From Candidatus Micrarchaeota archaeon (GTDB lineage: Archaea > Micrarchaeota > Micrarchaeia > Anstonellales > Anstonellaceae), in assembly GCA_043806415.1 (NCBI GenBank), contig JAZDHB010000077.1, positions 1 to 38,921 on the forward strand: DNA of 38,921 nt, written 5' to 3'. The translations under genes and the position numbers were made by a program. Of the stretch, positions 3,726-36,383 are shown piece after piece; position 1 is the stretch's first letter; every line of letters starts with the position of its first letter. The notes beneath the pieces are model-generated. The model had not been told where the DNA came from. It worked only from the letters and a program-made list of their open reading frames with translations, and ran no database searches.

Positions 3726-4964
<1,239 letters not shown>

Positions 4965-4991
4965 GCCCGCCCCTGCGAGAATGGGTTGTCC

Positions 4992-5888
4992 ATGGAAATC
5001 CCCAAGAGCCCCGCCCTACTGATACTGCTGGCCTGCGCGGTCTGGGGGCTCACCTTCCCGCTCACGGACTATGCCCTGCATTTTTTTGACCCTTTTTTCA
5101 TCCTCTCCTTACGTTTCCTCATCGCGCTGCTCATCCTGGGTGGTTATCTGTTATTCACGGGCCGCTTCACGTTCAGCGCCGCTGAGCTCAAAATCGGTCT
5201 GCTCGTGGGCGCCGTTCTTTTCCTGACCTTCGCCACGCAGATCGTGGGCCAGAAGACCGTGAGCCCGACCTCCAGCGCCCTCATCACCGGCCTCTACGTC
5301 ATCTTCGTCCCCCTGTTGGCCGGCCTGGTGCAGGCCCGCACTCCCTCTTGGCGCCTCCTGACCTGCGCCCTCCTGGCCTTCTTGGGTCTCTTCCTGCTCT
5401 CCGGGGCGCAGTTAAGCATGGGCATCGGTGAATGGCTCACCGTGATCTGCGCCGTCTTCGCGTCGGTGCACATCCTGATGCTCTCCAAATGCGGGCACAT
5501 GGATTCCACCCGCCTGGCGTTTTTGCAGGTGGGCACGTGCGCCCTAATGAGCGTGCTGGCCATTCCGGCTCTTGGTGCCATTCCGGTCGAGCTGCCCCTC
5601 CAGCCCCTGCTGGCCATCGGATTCATGGGCGTATTCGCGTCCGCCTTCGCCTACTGGGCCCAGACCACGGCGCAAAAAAGCCTGCCGGCCGAGAAAGTGG
5701 CCGTCTTCTTCCTTTTCGAGCCCATGTTCGCCGCGCTCTTCGGCTGGCTGTTCTTCGGGGTCCTGCTCGCTCCGCTGCAATGGGCGGGCGGGGCGCTCAT
5801 CCTGCTGGGCATGTGGGGTGTGCAGACCGACCGCTCGGCACTTCTCTCCAGCGCCCGCCTCGAATCCAAAGAGAGCCTGCATCCCTAA
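4992..5888 (+). CDS. DMT/EamA family transporter
   Basis: About 10 hydrophobic helices, with AVWGLTF at the N-terminus and FLFEPMFAALFGWLF near the C-terminus. Start could be 4986 or 4992. Confidence 0.88.
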   Translation: MEIPKSPALLILLACAVWGLTFPLTDYALHFFDPFFILSLRFLIALLILGGYLLFTGRFTFSAAELKIGLLVGAVLFLTFATQIVGQKTVSPTSSALITGLYVIFVPLLAGLVQARTPSWRLLTCALLAFLGLFLLSGAQLSMGIGEWLTVICAVFASVHILMLSKCGHMDSTRLAFLQVGTCALMSVLAIPALGAIPVELPLQPLLAIGFMGVFASAFAYWAQTTAQKSLPAEKVAVFFLFEPMFAALFGWLFFGVLLAPLQWAGGALILLGMWGVQTDRSALLSSARLESKESLHP

Positions 5889-14872: not shown

Positions 14873-14984
14873 GATAAAAGAAGGATAGATGGGCTAAAAA
14901 GATTATCCGCCGAACCCGGCCCCGGGCCGCGCCGTTGCGATGCGAGCGGTAAAAAACATTCCTCCCCCATATCCATACGATTAT

Positions 14985-16295
14985 ATGGACTGTCTATCCG
15001 ACTCGTTCACCCCCATCGCCGACATCCTCGCCGGCAAAGCCGAGGGCAAGCTCGTCAAGGTCCGGGGATGGGTGCACCGCGCCCGCTCCTCCGGCTCGCT
15101 GGCATTCCTCGTGCTGCGCGACGCGGGCGGCGTGCTGCAGTGCGCCCTGAAAAAGGACGCCGTGGGCGAGAAGACGTTCGAGGCTGCCAAGTCCGCCTAC
15201 ATCGAATCCTCGTGCATGCTTTCGGGCACGCCAAAAAAGGACGAGCGCGCGCCCGGCGGCTGGGAACTGGCGGCCAGCGAATTCGAGTTCATCCACCAGG
15301 GCCAGCCCTTCCCCATCTCCAAGGACCAGTCCACCGAATTCCTGCTCGACGTGCGCCACCTCTGGCTGCGCAGCCAGAAGCTTTCCAAACTGATGAAACT
15401 GCGCCACGCCGCCCTGCGCTCCCTGCACCAATTCTTCGACGAGCGCGCCTTCTTTGAGCTCGCGCCGCCCATCATCACCAAATCCGCCTGCGAAGGAGGA
15501 TCCACCCTCTTCCAACTCGATTACTTCGGCTCGCCCGCCTACCTTTCCCAATCCGGACAGATGTATGCCGAGGTGTTCATGACCGCGCTCGAGAAGGTCT
15601 ATGTGCTCGCCCCCTCGTTCCGCGCCGAGCCCAGCCGCACCGTGCGCCACTTGGCCGAATACTGGCACCTCGAGCCCGAGATGGCCTTCTACAACCAGAA
15701 GATGAACATGCAACTGCAAGAGGATATGATCGTGCACGTCTGCCACGACCTGGGCAAGAACCAGGCCGGGCTGCTCGAGGACATCGGGCGGGACCCCAAG
15801 AAGCTGCTCGCCGTCAAGGGCCCCTTCCCGCGCATGACGTACGAGAAAGCGGTCGAGAAATGCCGCTCGCTTGATTGCAAAATAGAATTCGGCCAGGATT
15901 TGGGCGCGGACGAGGAAGCCGTCCTCACCAAGGACGCGGCCCAGCCCATCTTCATCCACAACCATCTCAAGGAATTCAAGGCCTTCTACATGCGCGAGGA
16001 CCCCAACCATCCGGGCACCGTGCTTTCGGCCGACCTGCTCGCGCCCGAAGGGCACGGGGAAATCATCGGCGGGAGCGAGCGCATCTGGCAGAAGGACGAG
16101 CTGCTCGAGCGCATGAAAGAACAAAACCTTCCGCTCGCCGACTACCAATGGTATGTGGACTTGCGCGAATACGGTTCGGTCCCGCATTCCGGCTTCGGCC
16201 TGGGCATCGAGCGGCTGTGCAAATGGATGTTCGGACTGGACCACATTAGGGATGCCATTCCGTTCCCAAGGACGATCAACCGGGTATATCCGTAA
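14985..16295 (+). CDS. asnS: Asparagine--tRNA ligase
   Basis: OB fold VRGWVHRAR, plus [50 protein letters not shown] and [15 protein letters not shown]. Confidence 0.95.
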   Translation: [436 protein letters not shown]

Positions 16296-16345
16296 GTCAA
16301 GGCACTTCCAACCCGTTTATATACTACTAACTACCTGATTATTTT

Positions 16346-17821
16346 ATGCCTCTAAGCTATAAACGCCTGTTGAACTTCTTCGGGAAAGAACAACAGAAGA
16401 CCCGTGATAACGGTTTCTTAAATGCCAAACTTCTCGACAAAGTTCCGCCCAAGTTCATCGGCAGCGAACGGATCAGGATAGAACTTGAATCAGATCCCAA
16501 GCGTGCTTCCGGCGCGGCTTCCCGCTACCAAGAACTGGTAGCCAAAATCGTCTCAAAGCTTGAATCGGGATTGTCTGAAAAATGCTTTATAGAACAGCTA
16601 TGGAAGTCTGTCAGCTCTTCCGTCCATTTCACAGAAAAACAAGCCTCAGGTTTTCTGGCGGATGCACTTGAAGGGGGTTTTGATTGCGATGCCTCGGCGT
16701 TTCTGCTGTATGACGTGGCCCGGGAAATGGGCATCAAATCCAATCTGGTTTCAACCACTAAACACGCGCTGCTCCTGTTCTCATCTTATGCCCTTGAAAC
16801 CACCAACGGGAAGTATTTTCCGGCCAGCGAACTTCATTCGCACTATCCCTATCATGTCGTGCTTGATGACTGGCAGGTGCACTCAATTACCTACGATGCT
16901 CGCGGCACTGTCTATTCCGAGCTCGGCCAATACGAGAACGCCATCTCCGACTACAACAAAGCCATCGAACTGAACCCAAATTGTGCCGAAGCATTCTACG
17001 GCCGCGGCAATGTCTATCTCAACCTCGGCGAACTCTACCGGGCCATCGCCGACTTCACCAAAGCCATCGAACTGAACCCAAAACGTGTCGAAGCGTTCAA
17101 CAACCGCGGCAATGCCTATTTCAGACTCGTCCAATACGACAAAGCCATCAGCGACTACAACAAAGCCATCAAACTGAACCCAAATTATGCCACAGCGTTC
17201 TACAACCGTGCAATTGTCTATTTCAATCGCGAGCGATACAACAAAGCCATCGCCAACTACAAGAAAGTCATCGCACTGGACCCAAAGTGTGCAGGTGTGT
17301 TCAACAACCGTGGCTATGCCTATTCCGAGCTCGTCCAATACAAGAACGCCATCGCCGACTTCACCAAAGCCATCGAACTGAACCCAAATTGTGTCGAAGC
17401 GTTCAACAACCGCGGCAATGTCTATCTCAACCTCGGCGAATACGATAAAGCCATCAGCAACTACAACAAAGCCATCGAACTGAACCCAAATTGTGTCCAA
17501 GCGTTCTACGGCCGCGGCAATATCTATCTCAACCTCGGCGAATACGATAAAGCCATCGCCGACTACAGCAAAGTCTCAGATGTAGACGCGCTCAACAACC
17601 GTGGCTATGCCTATTTCAGACTCGGCGAATACGATAAAGCCATCGCCGACTACAAATTCGTCGCACAGGACCCAATATATCGCTCAGTGTTCTACAGCCT
17701 CGGCCATTCCGGGTACCTTGGGTACATCAGCGACCTCGACCAAGCCGCCGCACTGAACCCAAGATATGCCCCAGCATTCTACAACCTCGCCATTCCCCAT
17801 TACAATCAGCCGCGTGAATGA
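16346..17821 (+). CDS. Transglutaminase-like N-terminal domain plus TPR repeat protein; probable frameshift near the 3' end
   Basis: FDCDASAF...KHALL...ETT followed by about 8-9 TPRs (AFxNRGNxYxxLGEYDKAIxDYNKAIELNP). Visibly more AT-rich than the flanking core genes. Confidence 0.85.
   Translation: MPLSYKRLLNFFGKEQQKTRDNGFLNAKLLDKVPPKFIGSERIRIELESDPKRASGAASRYQELVAKIVSKLESGLSEKCFIEQLWKSVSSSVHFTEKQASGFLADALEGGFDCDASAFLLYDVAREMGIKSNLVSTTKHALLLFSSYALETTNGKYFPASELHSHYPYHVVLDDWQVHSITYDARGTVYSELGQYENAISDYNKAIELNPNCAEAFYGRGNVYLNLGELYRAIADFTKAIELNPKRVEAFNNRGNAYFRLVQYDKAISDYNKAIKLNPNYATAFYNRAIVYFNRERYNKAIANYKKVIALDPKCAGVFNNRGYAYSELVQYKNAIADFTKAIELNPNCVEAFNNRGNVYLNLGEYDKAISNYNKAIELNPNCVQAFYGRGNIYLNLGEYDKAIADYSKVSDVDALNNRGYAYFRLGEYDKAIADYKFVAQDPIYRSVFYSLGHSGYLGYISDLDQAAALNPRYAPAFYNLAIPHYNQPRE
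16890..17660 (+). repeat. Intragenic 102-bp tandem repeats encoding TPR units
   Basis: aaagccatcgaactgaacccaaa and cgcggcaatgtctatctcaacctcggcgaa recur with 102-bp periodicity. Confidence 0.85.
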
Positions 17822-17893
17822 AGCCTTGTCGAATTTCAAGGCAGCCAACCGGCTGAATCCGGGCATCCCGATTCCACTTTTGGAATAGGCGGC

Positions 17894-17995
17894 ATGCTTT
17901 CGAGAAGGCTGGAGCTAGCGCGCGAAATGATTAAGCTTCAGCGCGAAAAACTGGAGCGTCAGCGCAAAAAACCACTTGGCAAGCCAAAAAGGTAA
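17894..17995 (+). pseudogene. 33-aa basic ORF or gene remnant (MLSRRLELAREMIKLQREKLERQRKKPLGKPKR)
   Basis: ATG at 17894, with a stop immediately before the first asnS-tail copy. Below the length cutoff of the ORF track. Confidence 0.35.
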
Positions 17996-17996
17996 T

Positions 17997-18055
17997 ATTC
18001 CGTTCCCAAGGAAGATTAACCGGGTTTATCCCTGGCGCGCAGGGCGTATCCGTAA
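17997..18055 (+). repeat. Displaced asnS 3'-end copies (IPFPRKINRVYP, then a mini copy RAYP*)
   Basis: attccgttcccaaggaagattaaccgggtttatccc matches asnS 16257-16292. agggcgtatccgtaa at 18041-18055 is a second, shorter tail. Confidence 0.85.
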
Positions 18056-18086
18056 TTCTCTTAAACTATCCCGCCGTTTCTCTTCC

Positions 18087-18251
18087 ATGTCGAGCGTGCA
18101 TTACCCAAGCTTCGAGGAAATCATCGAGCTTAATATGGCAGACCATCCGGGCAATGCACCAGTTCTCAGGGGTATCCGCGAGGGATATCATCTCGATGAT
18201 GAGATTGTGGAGTGGATTAAGCATGGAAAAATCAGGCCTTATATCCGATGA
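18087..18251 (+). pseudogene. Internally deleted Fic/Doc-family toxin remnant
   Basis: YPSFEEIIELN joined directly to VLRGIREGYHLDDEIVEWIKHGKIRPYIR. These resemble the two termini of archaeal Doc-like proteins, and the HxFxxGNxR core is absent. Recognised from memory, not by search. Confidence 0.55.
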
Positions 18252-18252
18252 G

Positions 18253-18345
18253 ATGCGCCTGCGTGTCGTATCCGAGGAATTGGTCTCATTCGAGCGCCTC
18301 ATTGCGGGGCATCGCAAGCTCCTATGGGCCATCGGCAATCTCTGA
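18253..18345 (+). CDS. 30-aa putative antitoxin partner of the Fic/Doc remnant (MRLRVVSEELVSFERLIAGHRKLLWAIGNL)
   Basis: Starts 1 bp after the remnant's stop and encodes an amphipathic helix reminiscent of small Doc partners. Confidence 0.45.
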   Translation: MRLRVVSEELVSFERLIAGHRKLLWAIGNL

Positions 18346-18353
18346 TATGCGGT

Positions 18354-18482
18354 GAATACGGCTCGGTGCCGCATTCTGGTTTTGGTTTGGGCATCGAACG
18401 CCTGTGCAAATGAATGTTCGGCCTGGACCACATTCGGGATGCCATTCCGTTTCCGAGGACGATAAATCGGGCGTATCCCTAA
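18354..18482 (+). pseudogene. asnS: 129-bp displaced asnS 3' end ([41 protein letters not shown])
   Basis: Colinear with asnS 16167-16295. Of 42 codons, 16 differ synonymously, 1 is nonsense and 1 is missense (manual count). Confidence 0.95.
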
Positions 18483-18555
18483 ATCAGGGTCATCTCGTAT
18501 TCCTCGGTCGTATCCCTCCCATACATTTATAATTTCTTATAACCTATTATAATCC

Positions 18556-18768
18556 ATGTCTTTCACCACCATCCAAATCGACAAGTCGCTCCTCGCCCTT
18601 CTCAAGAAGCGCAAAGCCCACGCCCGGCAGAGCTACAACGAGGTTCTCCACGAAATCCTGGGCCGGCCCTCTTCTGCCCAATACGACGAATATCTGCACC
18701 ACGTCCAGAAGGCCAAGATGAAGGAGCTCTGGGATAACGCAGACGACGAGGCTTGGGATCATGCATAA
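18556..18768 (+). CDS. Putative antitoxin (RHH-like)
   Basis: TTIQID...LKKRK...SYNEVL N-terminus and acidic ELWDNADDEAWD C-terminus. Overlaps the MazF start. TTTATAA about 30 bp upstream. Confidence 0.75.
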   Translation: MSFTTIQIDKSLLALLKKRKAHARQSYNEVLHEILGRPSSAQYDEYLHHVQKAKMKELWDNADDEAWDHA

Positions 18769-19078
18769 AGCGGGTGATGTGGTGCTGGCGTGGGTGCAAT
18801 TCACCGACACGGCCGAGCAGAAGAAGCGCCCCGCCCTAGTGCTCTTTGAAGAGTTAGGCAATGTGGTCGTTGCCGGCATCACCAGCAACAAAGCCATGAA
18901 AGGCATCGTCATCGGCCCAAAAGACGGCCTGATGAAAGAGAGCGTCATCAAGACGAATTACATCTTCACCCTCACGGCACAGGCGATCGAGAAAAAGCTG
19001 TGCGATCTGCCGCCCGCCAAACGCCGGGAAGTCCATGCGGCGCTCATGGAAAAACTGTCCGGGCTCATTCAGGCGTAA
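18761..19078 (+). CDS. mazF: MazF/PemK-family toxin
   Basis: Motifs GDVVLAWVQFTD...KKRPALVL...VAGITS...GLMKESVI. Confidence 0.88.
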   Translation: MHKAGDVVLAWVQFTDTAEQKKRPALVLFEELGNVVVAGITSNKAMKGIVIGPKDGLMKESVIKTNYIFTLTAQAIEKKLCDLPPAKRREVHAALMEKLSGLIQA

Positions 19079-19266
19079 AGGAATGTTTCGGCCTTGAGCA
19101 CATCCGCGACGCCATCCCGCCGTCAAGGCCGAGCCGGCGCAAGGCTTGGCGGGAATTCCCGCATCGGCCCGCTGGCCGATGGGGCACCGTCGGCTCAAAG
19201 GAGCCGACGATTGCGCCAGCAGGCGAATCAGATTCCCTAAGGACGATCAACCGGGTATATCCGTAA
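19077..19266 (+). repeat. Displaced asnS 3' end (FGLEHIRDAIP / RTINRVYP*) interrupted by a 113-bp hairpin-rich insertion
   Basis: ttcggccttgagcacatccgcgacgccatcccg, then insert 19120-19232, then ttccctaaggacgatcaaccgggtatatccgtaa, whose final 28 nt are identical to the asnS end. Confidence 0.9.
19120..19232. mobile_element. Miniature multi-hairpin insertion (MITE/REP-like)
   Basis: Splits the asnS copy between Pro and Phe codons. Contains five adjacent palindromes: 19128-50, 19149-62, 19162-81, 19188-209 and 19209-29. Confidence 0.6.
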
Positions 19267-19272
19267 CTCGTC

Positions 19273-19554
19273 CTATTCCAGCCACTTATAACCTTGGTTG
19301 CGCCGCACGATCTCGGTGATCTTCACTTCTTTCCCGACCACTGCATAGATGATTCGATACTCGCCCACTCTCAAGCGGTAGAATGGGGGTTCGAACGAGC
19401 CTTGCAGCTTCTTGATGTCTGCCCCGCTGCGGGGCCGGTAGGGGTCTTCTTTCAGCGCATCCCAGCCCCGGCGGATTCTTTTCTGCGCGTCCGGCTCCAG
19501 CTCGTCAAAAGCATGCCGGGCGGTCTTGGAAACCAGGACCAAAAAACCGCTCAT
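19273..19554 (-). CDS. relE: RelE/ParE-family toxin
   Basis: Motifs LKEDPY...DIKKLQG...YRLRVGEYRIIY. Confidence 0.9.
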   Translation of the reverse strand: MSGFLVLVSKTARHAFDELEPDAQKRIRRGWDALKEDPYRPRSGADIKKLQGSFEPPFYRLRVGEYRIIYAVVGKEVKITEIVRRNQGYKWLE

Positions 19555-19733
19555 AACCTACTCACCGGGGCGAATTCCTCATTCTCCAGAATCCACTTCT
19601 GTTTGAGCAAAAATCCATGCATCTTGGCGACTTCCATGAGGTTCTGGAGGATGTCCTGATAGGTCTGACCTTTGGTGCCAAATTGCTTGAGCTGCTCTTT
19701 GGTCTGCATGTCTATAGCGATTGTCGTTTGCAT
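19551..19733 (-). CDS. Putative antitoxin (RHH-like)
   Basis: MQTTIAID...KEQLKQFGTKGQTYQDIL with a 4-bp overlap with relE. A tandem catataatca repeat at 19731-19750 overlaps the start and may be an operator. Confidence 0.8.
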   Translation of the reverse strand: MQTTIAIDMQTKEQLKQFGTKGQTYQDILQNLMEVAKMHGFLLKQKWILENEEFAPVSRL

Positions 19734-19777
19734 ATAATCACATATAATCATTATATCTAATTATATTTAAGCCTTTC

Positions 19778-19807
19778 GTCAACCGGCTGCATCCGTAAGT
19801 TGAGGCA
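19778..19807 (+). repeat. Degenerate terminal asnS-tail copy (VNRLHP*) marking the right boundary of the array
   Basis: tcaaccggctgcatccgtaagttgaggca versus asnS tcaaccgggtatatccgtaagtcaaggca. Similarity extends past the stop codon. Confidence 0.7.
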
Positions 19808-19840
19808 AATCAACAAAAACCCCTCTTGCGTGTATCCGGC

Positions 19841-20341
19841 ATGGACCCCCTCATTTCCATCCAGCGCTATCTTTCCGCCCTGCGCTCCGGCGCGTCCGCC
19901 TCCACGGTTCTTTTCCCCGAGCAGCGCCGGCAATTCCGCGTAGTGCTCACCGGCGGGGTGTTCGACGTCATCCACCCCGGTCATTTGCACACCCTCAACG
20001 AAGCGAGGAAGGCGGGCGCGAACGCGTCCGGCAAGCCCGTGGTGCTGGTGGTCGTGGTCTCGACCGACGAGAACGTGGCGAAGCGCAAGGGCCGCGAGCC
20101 GCTCCATTCGGCCGCCGAGCGCTCCGCGCTTGTGGAGGCGCTCAAGCCCGTGGATCTGGCCATCGTTGGCGTCTCCCGCTGGCAGGACACCCTCGCGCGC
20201 GTCGCTCCCGACGTCGTGGTGTTCGGATACGACCAGACGCCCATGCCTCTGCCGGACGAAATCAAAGTCGTGCACCTCACCAGCCACGGGGCGAATCCCA
20301 ATTCGAAGACCGGCAAAGTGCGCGACCGGCTGGGTTTCTGA
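19841..20341 (+). CDS. ribL: Cytidylyltransferase-family protein, probable archaeal FAD synthase
   Basis: Motifs GGVFDVIHPGH (HxGH), VVVVSTD, KGREPL and PDVVVFGYDQ. Confidence 0.78.
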   Translation: MDPLISIQRYLSALRSGASASTVLFPEQRRQFRVVLTGGVFDVIHPGHLHTLNEARKAGANASGKPVVLVVVVSTDENVAKRKGREPLHSAAERSALVEALKPVDLAIVGVSRWQDTLARVAPDVVVFGYDQTPMPLPDEIKVVHLTSHGANPNSKTGKVRDRLGF

Positions 20342-24792: not shown

Positions 24793-25539
24793 GTGGAGCG
24801 CGTGACAGGTTGGCTGCTGCCCGCATGGGCGAACGGATGGCTGGTCTTCTCACTGGCATTGCTGGGCGTCTGGGCCCTGCTGTTTGCCGTGATGCCCTCC
24901 TCGCGCAGGAGGATGCTCATGGCTGGCCTTCTGACCTCGCTGTTCGGGCTGACCGAGCCGCTCTTCGTCCCCGCCTACTGGAATCCCCCCTCGCTCTTTG
25001 ATTTGGCTGCCCGGACCGGATTCGATTTGGAGAGCCTGATTTTCTGTTTTGCCATCGGGGGCATCGGCGTGGTTCTCTACGAGGCGCTGTTCCCCGTGGT
25101 GCATCGCAGGATGGGTGCGCATGCGATGCATGCCAATCGCCATCGTTTCCACCAGCTGGCCTTGGCGGCGCCGGTTATCGTCTTCCTGCCCCTCATGGCG
25201 TTTACCCGCATCAACCCCATCCATTCGTCCAGCCTGGCCATGCTTGTCGGCGGGATTGCCGCCATATTCTGCCGGCCTGACCTGACGAAGAAGATTCTGG
25301 TCGGCGGGGCGCTGTTCCTTGCCCTCTATTTCGGCTTCTTCCTAGCCTTCAACCTGGCCTATCCGGGGTTCGTGCAGCAGGTCTGGAACCTCCCCGCGCT
25401 CAGCGGCATTCTGGTGCTGGGCGTGCCGCTGGAGGAGCTTATGTTCGCATTCACATTCGGCATGATGTGGTCGAGCGCATACGAGCACGTTTTCTGGTCA
25501 AGGCTGGCGCAACCGGCCAAGCAACGGAGGCGGGTGTGA
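24793..25539 (+). CDS. Lycopene-cyclase-domain-like membrane protein
   Basis: Duplicated TM module with EPLFVPAYWNP...DLESLIF and VWN...GILVLGVPLEELMFAF. Start uncertain. Confidence 0.7.
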   Translation: MERVTGWLLPAWANGWLVFSLALLGVWALLFAVMPSSRRRMLMAGLLTSLFGLTEPLFVPAYWNPPSLFDLAARTGFDLESLIFCFAIGGIGVVLYEALFPVVHRRMGAHAMHANRHRFHQLALAAPVIVFLPLMAFTRINPIHSSSLAMLVGGIAAIFCRPDLTKKILVGGALFLALYFGFFLAFNLAYPGFVQQVWNLPALSGILVLGVPLEELMFAFTFGMMWSSAYEHVFWSRLAQPAKQRRRV

Positions 25540-25541
25540 GC

Positions 25542-27749
25542 ATGGGAGAGTACAAATGCCAGAAATGCGGGATGGAATACGACAAACCCGGAAAGTGCGA
25601 GATGGACGGCACGAGGCTTGTCAAAACGGGGGGCGGCAGCCCCCCGGTTTCCACTTACGAATTTCAATCACATGGCATGACCCATGGCGAAAATATGGGC
25701 TGGTGGGAAAAATTCAGGATGAGTATGGGCATGACCATGGGGATGGACCACACCGGCCTGGCGGGCCGGGAAATGGCCAAGCTCATGGAAGAGGACATAC
25801 GCAACAAGTTCTTCGTATCGCTTTTATTGACTATCCCCGTGGTGCTCTATTCGCCGCTGGGCCAGTCGCTCGGCCTGAAGCTTCCCTCCCCAATCCCGAT
25901 CCCGTGGCTGCTCTTCGCCCTCTCAACTCCAGCATTCTTCTATTGCGGCTGGATATTCCTCTACTCCACGTTCGTGGCGCTGCGAGAGCGCAAGCTTAAC
26001 ATGGCGGTGCTGATTGCCGTCGGCATCACGGCCGCCTACGGCTTCAGTGCGCTGCTCACGCTGATGGGCAGCAGCGACACGTTCTACGACGCCGCCGTCA
26101 TGCTGATAACCTTCGTGCTGTTCGGCCACTGGATGGAGATGAAATCCAGGCGCGGGACCACCGACGCGCTGCAGGCGCTGTTCAACCTCGTGCCCCCGCA
26201 AGCCAGGCTGCTGCGCAACGGGCGCGAGGCGCTCGTGCCGACAAGCGATGTGAAGCCCGGCGACGTCCTCGTCCTCAAGCCGGGGGACAAGGTTCCGGTG
26301 GATGGCGTCATCATGGGCGGGGAGACGCTCATCGACGAGTCCATGGTGAGCGGCGAATCCATCCCGGTGCAGAAAAAACGCGGGGACAAGGTAATCGGGG
26401 GCTCCATCAACCAGAGCGGCTCGGTCAGGTTCAGGGCCACCCATGTGGGGGCAGACACCGCGCTGGCGCAAATCGTGCGGATGGTGGAGGTGGCCCAGAC
26501 CTCCAAGGCGCCGGGGCAGAGGCTGGCCGACAAATTCGCCGGATACCTCGTGATTGTGGCGGTGGGCAGCGGTTTTGTCACGTTCGCGGCGTGGTATTTC
26601 GTAGCCGGGCAGCCGCTGATGATGGCGCTCACCTTTGCAATATCGGCAGTCGTCATCGCATGCCCGGACGCGCTGGGGCTTGCGACCCCCACCGCCGTGG
26701 CGGTTGGCACGGGGTTGGGCGCGAAGCACAACATCCTCATCAAGGACGCCGCCACGCTGGAGCAGGCATCCAAAATCCAAGCTGTCGTGATGGACAAGAC
26801 CGGCACGCTGACCGAAGGCAGGCCCCGGGTGACGGACATCATAGCCTCTGCCGGTTTCGGCGCAAACGAGGTGCTTATGCTCGAAGCGGCGGTCGAGTCC
26901 AACTCGACGCACCCGCTAAGCCGGGCTGTAATCGAAGAGGCCAAGAGGCGGAAAATTAGCTTCCCTCAAAAGGTGGCCAAATTCTCCAACATCTCCGGGC
27001 ATGGCGTGGAAGCGAAAGTGGGCAGCCGGCACGTTCTTGTGGGGACTTCCAAGCTCATGACGGACCGCAAGGTGGACATCGCGCCATTGAGCCGGGAGAT
27101 GGACCGACTGGTGTCCGAGGGAAAGACCGTCATGCTGCTGGCCGTCAATGGCAAGCTGGCCGGTGTCACGGCCGCCGCCGACCAGATAAAGCCGACCGCG
27201 AAGATGGCCGTGGAAAGGATGCACGAACTCGGGCTGGAAGTCGCCATGATAAGCGGGGACAATCAGAAGACCGCAGATGCCGTGGCAAAAAAGCTTGGCA
27301 TCGAGAGGGTGTTCGCGCAGGTGCTGCCGGAAGACAAGGCGAAATACGTGAAAAAGCTGCAAGAGGAGGGGAAATTCGTCGCCATGGTGGGAGACGGGGT
27401 CAATGACGCCCCGGCGCTCGCGCAGGCCGACATCGGCATCGCCATCGGCGCGGGGACCGACGTGGCCATCGAGACGGCGAAAATCGTGCTGATGAAATCC
27501 GACCCGGCCGACATCCTGCGGGCCATCCGGCTCTCCAAGGCCACCGTGCGCAAGATGAAGGAAAACCTCGTCTGGGCGTCCGGCTACAACCTGCTGGCCA
27601 TTCCCATCGCGGCGGGCATGCTTTATCCGGGTTATGGCATCGTCCTTCCGCCGGAAATTGCCGCCCTGCTCATGAGCGTCTCGTCCATCATCGTCGCAAC
27701 GAACGCAGTGCTTCTCAAGCGCGCCGAGAAGGAATTGATTGGCATCTGA
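25542..27749 (+). CDS. P1B-type heavy-metal (copper) translocating ATPase with CPD motif
   Basis: Motifs SGES, ACPDALGLATP, DKTGTLT, HP, GDGVNDAPALA, YN and MSVSS. N-terminal CxxC...C and Met/His-rich segment. Confidence 0.93.
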   Translation: MGEYKCQKCGMEYDKPGKCEMDGTRLVKTGGGSPPVSTYEFQSHGMTHGENMGWWEKFRMSMGMTMGMDHTGLAGREMAKLMEEDIRNKFFVSLLLTIPVVLYSPLGQSLGLKLPSPIPIPWLLFALSTPAFFYCGWIFLYSTFVALRERKLNMAVLIAVGITAAYGFSALLTLMGSSDTFYDAAVMLITFVLFGHWMEMKSRRGTTDALQALFNLVPPQARLLRNGREALVPTSDVKPGDVLVLKPGDKVPVDGVIMGGETLIDESMVSGESIPVQKKRGDKVIGGSINQSGSVRFRATHVGADTALAQIVRMVEVAQTSKAPGQRLADKFAGYLVIVAVGSGFVTFAAWYFVAGQPLMMALTFAISAVVIACPDALGLATPTAVAVGTGLGAKHNILIKDAATLEQASKIQAVVMDKTGTLTEGRPRVTDIIASAGFGANEVLMLEAAVESNSTHPLSRAVIEEAKRRKISFPQKVAKFSNISGHGVEAKVGSRHVLVGTSKLMTDRKVDIAPLSREMDRLVSEGKTVMLLAVNGKLAGVTAAADQIKPTAKMAVERMHELGLEVAMISGDNQKTADAVAKKLGIERVFAQVLPEDKAKYVKKLQEEGKFVAMVGDGVNDAPALAQADIGIAIGAGTDVAIETAKIVLMKSDPADILRAIRLSKATVRKMKENLVWASGYNLLAIPIAAGMLYPGYGIVLPPEIAALLMSVSSIIVATNAVLLKRAEKELIGI

Positions 27750-34000: not shown

Positions 34001-36238
34001 TCACAGCCTCGTCCATCTCAATGTCAGCGAGTTGCTCACCACCGACACCGACGAGAGGGCCATCGCCCCGCCCGCGATGAGCGGCGAGAGCAGCCAGCCC
34101 GTGAAGGGGAACAGCACGCCGGCGGCGATGGGAATGCCAAGAATGTTATAGATGAGGGCCCAGAAGAAATTCTGCTTGATTTTCGAGATGGTGGCCCTCC
34201 CCAGCTTGATGGCCCGCGCCACGTCCTGCGCGTCCGAGCGCATGAGCACCACGTCCCCGCTCTCGATGGCGATGTCGCTTCCCGAGCCCATGGCGATGCC
34301 CAGATCGGCCTGCGCCAGCGCGGGCGCGTCGTTGATGCCGTCCCCCACCATGGCCACTTTGGAGCCGCCGGCCTGCAATTTCTTCACTTCCTCGGCCTTG
34401 TCCTGGGGCAGCACCTCGGCGATGACGTTCTCGATGCCGGCCTGCCGCCCGATGGCTTTCGCGGCGCGCGCGTTGTCGCCGGTGATCATCCACACCGTCA
34501 ATCCCAGCTTCTTGAGCTCGGCCACGGCCTGTATCGACGTGGGGCGCAGGGTGTCGGCCACGGCCACGAGCCCGATGGCCTTCTGACCTTCCATCAGGGC
34601 CATCACCGTCTTGCCCTCGTGCTCGAGCTTCTCCATGCGCGCAGCGGAGTCCGCATCCAGGCCGGCCCCCATCGTCTTGACCATCTTGGCATTGCCCAGG
34701 CCCATCCGTTTCGCGCCGATCTTGCCTTCTACGCCGTGGCCCGGCACGGCCTTGAACGAAACCACCTTCTTCAGCTCGATGCCTCTCGCCTTCGCCTCCT
34801 CCAGCACCGCATCCGCGATCGGATGCTCGGAATTCTTCTCGAGCGAGGCGGCGAGCATCAGCACCATCGTCTCGTCGCGCTTCGCGTCCAGGGAAACGAC
34901 GTCCGTCACCTTGGGTTTTCCTTCCGTGAGCGTGCCGGTCTTGTCGAAAAGCACGGCATTTATCTTGTGTGTGCCCTCCAGCGCCTCGGCATTCTTGAAC
35001 AGGATCCCCTTCTGCGCCCCCAGCCCGGAGCCCACCATGATCGAGGTGGGCGTCGCGAGGCCCAGCGCGCAGGGGCAGGCGATCACCAGCACCGAGACGG
35101 CCATGATGAGGGCGAACGAGAACGGGTCGGCCGGGATCGGCATGGACGGGAACCATGCTTTCGCCAGCCCGGAGCTGAGCGCGAAATACCAGACGCCGAA
35201 GGCGAGGAGCGCGACGACGATCACGATCGGCACGAACACCGCGCTGATCTCGTCCGCGAAGCGCTGGATGGGCGCGCGGCTGCCCTGCGCGTCCTCCACC
35301 ATCTTCACGATCTGCGAGAGTGCGGTGTCCGAACCAACCTTCTCGGCCCGCACGTTCAGCACCCCGTGCTTGTTGATGGTGGCCCCGAACGCCCGGCTGC
35401 CCTCTATCTTCTCCACCGGCATGCTCTCTCCCGTGAGCATGGCCTCGTCCACTGAGGAATGCCCGCCCACCACCGTGCCATCAGTCGGGATCTTCTCGCC
35501 CGGCTTGACGATCATGACATCTCCGACCACGATCTGCGCGGCGTCGATGGTCATCTCCTTTCCGTTTCGGATGACCGTGGCCTGCTTGGGGGCCAAATCC
35601 AGCAGCTTGCGGATGGCTTCCGAGGCTTTCCCCTTGGCCATGGCTTCCAGGTACTTGCCCAATATCACCAGCGTGATGAGGCTCGCGCCCACCTCGAAAT
35701 ACTGCTCCCGGGCGAAGCCGAGCAGCGCGGCGATGCTGTACAGATAGGCCGCGCTGGTGCCCAGGGCAATCAGCGTATCCATCGAAGCCGTCTTGTTTCG
35801 CGCGGCCGCGATGGCTCCCTGATAGAACGACCAGCCCACGATGAACTGAACGGGCGTGCTCAAAAGGAAGAGGAGCGGCAGGCGGTAAGGGAAGTCCATC
35901 AGGAACATGCCCAGCGCGACCGCGGGCACGGAAAGGACGGCGCCGGCCAGCAGTCTCATCTTCAGTTCCGAGATCTCGGCCGCCCGCAATTCCTTCTCGT
36001 GCTCGTGCGACACGCCCACGCTGGCGCCGTATCCGAGCGATTTGACCTTTTGCACGAGCGAGCTTTGCATCCCCTGCTCGTCGGCAATCTCTTTTTCGTC
36101 GTATTCCACCTGTGCCCTCCCGGCCGCGTAATTCACGTTAGCCTTCGCTACGCCGCTCACCTTGCCCAAGCCTCTGGTGATGAGCGTGGCGCACGAGGCG
36201 CAGTGCATCCCGGAAATGGTCAAATCAACCTTCTTCAT
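34001..36238 (-). CDS. copA: Copper-translocating P1B-1 ATPase
   Basis: HMA GMHCASC, plus [39 protein letters not shown] and MALSS. Start is 36238 or 36253. Confidence 0.95.
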
Positions 36239-36383
36239 TCTCCCACCTGCCATTTTTCATATTTGTAATCGATGAACGCAATGAATCTCAAATCCATGAT
36301 CCCCGAACGCGAACCCATTTTCGCTCAAGATGAACGGGAGGAGGCGTTTTCCATCCGCCCCCTCCCCATCTTCCACACCGCTC

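Follow-up and report, generated by a model that had tools for sequence, protein, structure and literature searches.

In chromosomal integrons, cassettes of one or two genes stand in tandem, and many are toxin-antitoxin modules; every cassette ends in a recombination site, and insertion is newest first. In tycheposon arrays, cargo-only remnants and partial repeats of the target gene occur. As far as the cited part of the source describes them, tycheposons are integrative elements that build variable islands in streamlined Prochlorococcus (10.1101/2020.12.28.424599). Tandem islands are also found in Dehalococcoides, downstream of the single-copy essential gene ssrA, whose 3' end recurs as a direct repeat at the boundaries of every island; in the accessible text of that report, some units are without an integration module and are discussed as cis-mobilizable elements gathered by accretion (PMC3146451). 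Finally, the icd/icdC pair of Escherichia coli and the excision of prophage e14 are described in the available sections of PMC13626634, where Hill et al. 1989 is cited. Here we analyse an array of repeated ends of asnS, the gene for asparaginyl-tRNA synthetase, in an archaeon. Our literature search, most subscription journals lying outside its scope, found no paper on asnS as an integration target or on such arrays in Micrarchaeota.

The window, that is, the whole 38,921-nt stretch of DNA that was analysed, comes from a Micrarchaeota (DPANN) archaeon. The best 23 relatives of its asnS in a search of genome contigs all belong to Micrarchaeota, with 62-91% aa identity, and the relatives compared here are metagenome-assembled genomes. 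An ATP-dependent DNA ligase gene lies upstream of asnS, and genes for a tRNA-intron endonuclease and deoxyhypusine synthase are among the neighbours. The asnS ORF is open from 14940, the alignment of relatives begins only at residue 16, and the opening 15-19 codons of this long ORF have a low GC3. Translation probably begins 15 codons inside the longest ORF, at the ATG at position 14985, with 14940-14984 as extra sequence. Aligned with 22 relatives, the ORF is complete to the conserved C-terminus; the target gene is thus intact despite the inserts.

The usual right-hand neighbour of asnS is a cytidylyltransferase-like gene, which in the window is found 3.5 kb downstream. Between the two genes lie four small cassettes bounded by five copies of the asnS end, i.e. 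direct repeats of the 3' end of the gene (Table 1). The composition of this island is foreign, with GC contents of 0.50-0.53 across 16001-19000 and 19501-20000 and of 0.60-0.65 in the flanks. Elsewhere in the window, an 838-aa protein (123-2639) has a C-terminal Por_Secre_tail match (type IX secretion sorting), which is unexpected for an archaeon. A metal-resistance neighbourhood is present downstream of the island, with two P-type heavy-metal ATPase genes (25467-27749 and 34001-36253) and cupredoxin, DsbA-like and DUF302 genes.

Table 1. Features of the asnS locus (positions in the window).
Feature	Position	Strand	Basis
asnS (asparaginyl-tRNA synthetase), intact working gene	14985..16295	+	Pfam tRNA-synt_2 2e-72, tRNA_anti-codon
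T0, working asnS end (42 codons + stop), reference copy of the repeat	16167..16295	+	Repeat analysis
Cassette 1, TPR-repeat protein gene 16346-17821	16296..17996	+	Pfam TPR_1 7e-84
T1, two cut-down asnS-end remnants 9 nt apart	17997..18055	+	Repeat family D7, tblastn
Cassette 2, deleted Doc (Fic/DOC) toxin gene 18087-18251 (54 aa) and 40-aa ORF 18223-18345	18056..18353	+	BLASTP to L001
T2, displaced full-length asnS end, in frame, one internal TGA	18354..18482	+	Gapless alignment to asnS end
Cassette 3, 70-aa ORF 18556-18768 and PemK/MazF-like toxin gene 18761-19078	18483..19082	+	Pfam PemK_toxin 1.7e-11
T3, broken asnS end	19083..19266	+	tblastn, repeat comparison
Cassette 4, ParE/RelE-like toxin gene 19273-19554 and DUF7557 partner 19551-19751	19267..19778	-	Pfam ParE_toxin, DUF7557
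T4, last 20 nt of asnS end with stop	19779..19798	+	Repeat family D9
Cytidylyltransferase-like gene (RibL/FAD-synthetase-like), right edge of island	19841..20341	+	Pfam CTP_transf_like

The repeat copies are 77-91% alike and uneven in length (129, 36+14, 129, broken and 20 nt). The two parts of T1 are 17997-18032 (tail positions 91-126, 36 nt) and 18042-18055 (the final 14 nt with the stop), and this double end may mark the place of a fifth cassette that has been lost completely. The second part resembles T2 in having the alanine codon described below. T3 is composed of 19083-19119 (tail positions 61-96, with a 1-nt insertion), a 109-nt insert (19120-19228) and 19229-19266. The final 28 nt of T3 are identical to those of T0. 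The simple model of integration set out below does not predict this identity, which suggests gene conversion or else a crossover close to the right-hand limit of the tail. In T4, both codons that differ change the residue. T4 joins host DNA, and its similarity to the T0 flank continues for ~9 nt beyond the stop.

We analysed the divergence of the only full-length displaced copy in the window, T2. Its 129 nt align gaplessly with T0 and keep the asnS frame; 19 nucleotides differ, by 13 transitions and 6 transversions. The preliminary description of this DNA had set it against 16167-16295 and counted 16 silent codon differences, one V to A change and one TGG to TGA change, which our alignment reproduced exactly; the V to A replacement is a two-base change, GTA to GCG. 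The repeat was also recovered independently as family D5, with 85% identity. With the TGA codon set aside, the Nei-Gojobori count gave S=30.2, N=92.8, Sd=17 and Nd=1, hence dS=1.04, dN=0.011 and dN/dS=0.01. For as many as 17 silent changes among 18, the binomial probability is 5.8e-10; counting the nonsense change as non-silent raises it to 4e-9. When 19 random substitutions with the same transition:transversion ratio were placed on the asnS end in 100,000 simulation runs, a mean of 12.3 codons changed residue, and two or fewer in no run. Similarly, the six pairs that can be formed from the four full-length tails of the window and of its closest relative, L001, all have dN/dS values of 0.01-0.09, not near 1. 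That the displaced tail diverged under purifying selection, as initially proposed, is therefore well founded.

The alanine variant is natural, since four of 22 relatives (L004, L011, L012 and L019) have an NRAYP end. Hence, the stop codon is the only clearly degenerative change of T2 within the aligned 129 nt. To the left of T2, ~10 nt of weaker homology (18343-18353) with a 1-nt indel represent a further clearly degenerative mark. The dS of 1.04 between T0 and T2 is larger than that between the asnS bodies of the window and L001 (0.57). Thus, T0 and T2 separated long ago and spent nearly all that time as coding sequence.

These values bear directly on the simplest alternative, a local tandem duplication of the asnS end followed by decay in place. 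T2 is indeed a direct repeat in the same orientation 2.2 kb downstream of T0, and the two are each other's nearest relatives in the tail tree. However, 17 of the 18 scored changes are silent where ~25% would be expected under neutrality (P=6e-10), only 2 codons change residue compared with the simulated mean of 12.3, and a dS of ~1.0 exceeds that between the gene bodies of two genomes. Because its divergence took place under strong purifying selection, T2 is not a local duplicate decaying in place. The dN/dS result refutes such decay, and we consider the probability of a local origin to be close to negligible.

Comparison with related genomes showed that the island is an insertion, as the cytidylyltransferase-like gene, distant from asnS in the window, is adjacent to it in relatives. 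An empty site is found in L004, L006 and L008, in which this gene begins 10-40 nt past the asnS stop, and the gene is also near asnS in six more loci (L003, L005, L009, L013, L019 and L020). Extra asnS tails are present in two of the 23 genomes examined, the window and L001. One search covered 23 loci and the window, and the other covered 22 loci and the window, without L022, where the contig ends within asnS; three of the loci have less than 700 nt of downstream sequence.

In L001, the closest relative (91% aa identity for AsnS), asnS is followed by an intact Doc cassette, a first tail, a ParE cassette and a second tail, after which the contig ends. The cassette edges of L001 and of the window coincide, lying directly after the stop codon of a tail and at the start of the next tail. 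The Doc and ParE cassettes of the window are common to L001, where they are side by side, and the MazF cassette of the window sits between them. The tandem units bounded by att-like repeats, four in the window and two in L001, are devoid of recombinase genes. No integrase, resolvase or recombinase family (Pfam) was matched among the 41 window ORFs scanned. A further 27 ORFs, taken from L001 and, in 14 other relatives, from the region that follows asnS, likewise gave no match to these families. The horizontal transfer invoked in the preliminary description is supported by the low GC content, the broken adjacency of asnS and the cytidylyltransferase-like gene, the asnS-end repeats and the L001 array.

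A third genome, L010 (45% GC; 70% aa identity for AsnS), harbours a Doc-cassette remnant that starts right after the asnS stop, with no second tail. At about 11424-11480 of L010, the C-terminal part of the 40-aa ORF is fused to the start of the Doc gene, with differences from the window that by inspection are mostly silent. The non-coding first ~33 nt of the Doc cassette match between the window (18056-18088) and L010 (11351-11383) at 29 of 33 positions, and clearly fewer match between the window and L001. This closer match of window and L010 at the cassette start may mean that the cassette moved between distant lineages, or that a promoter there is under constraint.

An array of this kind might also arise if strain variants downstream of asnS had been joined through a shared repeat in metagenome assembly. 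The relatives are metagenome-assembled genomes, the contigs of close relatives (L001, L002 and L004) end soon after asnS, as they do at repeats, and two tails share an identical 28-mer. In contrast, the copies are 77-91% alike rather than identical, with just one shared run long enough to mislead an assembler, and an array of this kind, whose three tails lie on a single contig, is likewise present in the independent assembly of L001. An assembly artefact is thus highly improbable.

The cassettes are very small (0.3-1.7 kb) and have their own AT-rich upstream regions, and one of them is inverted. Cassette 1 has a GC content of ~0.50, and no relative of the N-terminal part of its TPR protein was found in the 23 related loci. 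The end of the TPR gene is apparently frameshifted, as a TPR-like reading goes on in another frame to 17888 (region 17766-17888). In cassette 2, the Doc protein matches that of L001 by BLASTP over its N-terminal 17 and C-terminal 38 residues. The middle is absent through an in-frame internal deletion; in L001, the Fic/DOC family match (Pfam Fic and NCBIfam DOC_P1) lies in this missing part. The adjoining 40-aa ORF is left intact. This ORF overlaps the end of the Doc gene, its product has 80% aa identity to its L001 counterpart (L001 4352-4474), and the next asnS tail, T2 in the window, begins immediately after its stop codon. It has no family match; as a partner by position only, it may be the Doc antitoxin. 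The 70-aa ORF of cassette 3 similarly codes for a putative antitoxin of the MazF-like toxin, by position only, and this cassette has no relative in the 23 related loci. Cassette 4 shares 78% nucleotide identity with the L001 cassette at 4713-5237. From their sequences, the toxin genes with a family match and a small adjacent partner (PemK_toxin and ParE_toxin/DUF7557 in the window, and Fic/DOC and DOC_P1 in L001) are predicted to form type II toxin-antitoxin modules.

The observations at this locus comprise silent-site divergence, arrayed repeats, a foreign base composition, unoccupied sites in relatives and one relative with shared cassettes. The likely explanation is that small mobile elements inserted one after another into the asnS 3' end and replaced the tail each time, that T2 is a former gene end which stayed behind in the process, and that the elements have since become integrase-less remnants. 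Each incoming element would have carried its own copy of about the last 46 asnS codons. Recombination within the shared stretch would have left asnS intact but ending in element-borne sequence, with the old end shifted beyond the insert. Tails of either kind would have served as the real AsnS C-terminus through their history, hence a divergence almost only at silent sites, which is the customary mark of mobile DNA that enters the end of a gene and supplies a new one. A displaced tail would then decay neutrally, which in T2 would have produced one stop codon and the left-edge indel. Repeated rounds, and the later deletions that the uneven tail lengths make necessary under serial integration, would have resulted in the present succession of asnS, the TPR cassette, the deleted Doc, MazF and ParE cassettes and the host neighbour. 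The integrase-less remnants would consist mostly of toxin-antitoxin modules, which resist loss, and any movement of these remnants would depend on a recombinase encoded elsewhere. We infer site-specific recombination by an enzyme encoded elsewhere or since lost, as we do the place of the crossover and the genome in which T2 last worked. Several points weigh against serial integration, namely that no recombinase was found, that only two of 23 genomes have extra tails, that T0 and T2 group together and that there is no sharp break at the tail boundary.

Some of these points would be accommodated by integrase-free, Campbell-type integration, in which small circular cassettes carrying an asnS 3' fragment recombine by homologous or short-repeat, RecA-independent recombination. 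Entry and exit could then occur anywhere in the ~140-nt shared stretch, giving rise to mosaic tails. This agrees with the lack of a recombinase in the window or next to asnS in relatives and with cassettes of only 0.3-1.7 kb. Moreover, the tails look mosaic, since in T0 a host-like left part, two thirds of the tail, is followed by 16 atypical codons, T2 has its atypical part on the left, and T0 and T3 share their last 28 nt without a difference. There is a precedent in a recombinase-less island that, in the part of the study cited, is excised RecA-independently (PMC5426353). However, tails ~85% alike, with T0/T2 identical runs of at most 16 nt, are a poor substrate for homologous recombination, and precise cassette edges that recur in three genomes are more typical of site-specific recombination. 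We therefore regard the Campbell-type route as unlikely, and favour serial integration of elements that brought their own asnS ends.

A conspicuous feature of some displaced tails is a GC-rich insert of ~100 nt with three consecutive hairpins, present in T3 (window 19120-19228) and in both displaced tails of L001 (4545-4646 and 5310-5411). It thus occurs in three of eight displaced tails and never in the working end. The insert folds well below shuffled controls (z=-4.6 and -4.8). Its fold is kept and its sequence is variable, with 8 of 32 predicted pairs changed on both sides, a covariation that rests on effectively two sequences. Scans of the window island yielded no Rfam family for the insert at gathering score or E<=1, those of L001 gave two chance-level matches, both outside the insert, and the insert has no tRNA or tmRNA match. 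No further copies were found in 80 loci and the window. A third source is a 62-aa database protein (P0001), which corresponds to a piece of the tail and has a shorter insert, placed as in L001. It is the only one clearly to have an L001-like insert among 182 short AsnS C-terminal fragments in our database survey, most of which come from short contigs and are indistinguishable from genes cut by contig ends. Inverted repeats were also searched for in the tails; there are none in the asnS end, and one AT-rich palindrome lies downstream of T2.

These inserts bring to mind an integron-like platform, with the asnS end as a fixed insertion site, cassettes that end in a structured site made of the tail and the three-hairpin insert, and a recombinase encoded elsewhere. 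New cassettes would enter beside asnS and push older ones downstream. The tandem one- or two-gene cassettes, most of them toxin-antitoxin modules, are in keeping with such a platform, as are the conservation of the fold without the sequence in three of eight displaced tails and the third source, with its tail fragment and insert at the L001 position. Several observations are at odds with it. The site is not flanked by an integron integrase gene, of which there is none among the 41 ORFs; upstream of asnS lies the DNA ligase gene. The insert is found at one of four cassette junctions in the window, compared with two of two in L001, and its position in the tail differs between the two genomes. 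In addition, one cassette is inverted, the cassettes have their own AT-rich upstream regions, and the covariation comes from effectively two sequences. An integron-like platform is, in our view, very unlikely. A broader conjecture, integron-like gene capture in this DPANN clade at a platform that has no recombinase on site, with the last ~46 asnS codons as a portable attachment site on one- or two-gene cassettes, is also quite unlikely. If it were true, the three-hairpin module would be a structured recombination signal, and the array would record captures each of which rewrote the end of an essential gene.

Returning to serial integration with tail replacement, we examined which tail is the imported one. 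The preliminary description had assigned this role to the present tail and called for a scan of codon usage along asnS. The scan located a change point at nt 16245, inside the tail, and the last 16 asnS codons have a mean log-preference of -1.41 versus -0.76 (permutation p=0.005). However, in 10 of 22 relatives, including the empty-site L004 and L006, GC3 of the last 12 codons is at least 0.1 below that of the gene body. The codon break may thus be a property of this gene end rather than specific evidence of import. A possible cause is a promoter for the downstream gene that overlaps the asnS end.

Silent divergence between the window and L001 (pS) is 0.71 in the tail versus 0.40 in the body, and a second peak occurs at codons 163-190. 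A sharp breakpoint at the tail boundary was rejected, as pS is raised, to 0.59-0.70, already from ~codon 355. In a tree of the tails, to which 126 columns lend weak support, T0 and T2 are nearest relatives (support 92/85) and both L001 tails pair (93/91). The gene body pairs with L001 at 100, while the T0 tail pairs with T2. The two window tails thus group together rather than with the different lineages that had been suggested. Over these 126 columns, AU tests reject neither window tail grouped with the L001 tails (p=0.10 and 0.18), nor all four together (p=0.45). The codon-usage break hints at an imported present tail, and the similar GC3 dip in relatives and the indecisive tail tree speak against taking it further. 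T2 is the least host-like tail, with GC3 values of 0.57 and 0.67 in its two halves versus 0.86 in the gene body, and hence was probably imported by an earlier element rather than being the original end of this lineage. The copy near 19100 had been described as using host-like codons, and the T3 fragment 19083-19119 does have host-preferred codons; it differs from the L001 tails at 1/33 to 2/36 positions and from T0 at 8/36, which likewise speaks for import of the present tail.

The array had also been read as a chronological record. An order with the newest insertion nearest asnS is self-consistent, since T4 is the most decayed, T3 is broken, host-like and accompanied by the ParE cassette shared with L001, and T2 carries only a stop. 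The record is not clean, however. T1, expected to be younger than T2, is more cut down, to 36+14 nt, and the MazF cassette is misplaced relative to L001. Integration at inner tails, deletions between tails and gene conversion can scramble the order of such an array. Thus, purifying selection and horizontally acquired DNA stand from the preliminary interpretation, and an imported present tail and a chronological record are tentative.

With the silent-site signature, it can be proved cleanly, by counting, that a fragment once formed the working end of a gene. At asnS, this signature would date a series of insertions into an essential aminoacyl-tRNA synthetase gene of a DPANN archaeon; little is known about the mobile elements of this group. 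The tiny toxin-antitoxin cassettes would illustrate the reduction of accreted elements to their addictive modules in a genome of roughly one megabase, and the locus offers a concrete attachment sequence with which to seek the missing recombinase.

Compared with the systems described above, the asnS array is unlike integrons in that there is no IntI beside the site and no attC at most junctions, one cassette is inverted and the repeat is the coding end of a host gene. Tycheposons, as far as the cited part of the source goes, are bacterial and have their own integrases, unlike the archaeal asnS cassettes. Like the ssrA islands of Dehalococcoides, the array is made of tandem repeat-bounded units downstream of a single essential gene. 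However, the islands in the accessible text of that report are kilobases in size, with a 20 bp repeat of an RNA gene and, in many units, a serine-recombinase module, whereas the asnS repeat is a coding sequence of ~130-140 nt and no unit keeps a recombinase. As the repeat is coding, silent-site divergence can be read at asnS, unlike in the ssrA repeat. The resemblance extends further with the cryptic prophage e14 of E. coli K-12, a mobile element in the 3' end of a gene of an essential pathway, with an element-borne working end and a displaced end of similar length. By the measure applied to T2, icd and icdC across e14 have 12 differences over 165 nt, with Sd=10, Nd=2 and dN/dS=0.044. The repeat, the intact target gene, the silent differences and the empty sites of an e14/icd-type element are all present at asnS, but the integrase next to the attachment site is not. 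e14 is a single 15-kb element with its own integrase and excisionase (intE and xisE are annotated), whereas the asnS locus has four tiny tandem recombinase-less cassettes in an archaeal host, with a deeper divergence (dS of 1.0 versus 0.36). By this analogy, the asnS array is best described as an archaeal, multi-copy counterpart of e14/icd and not as a new principle.
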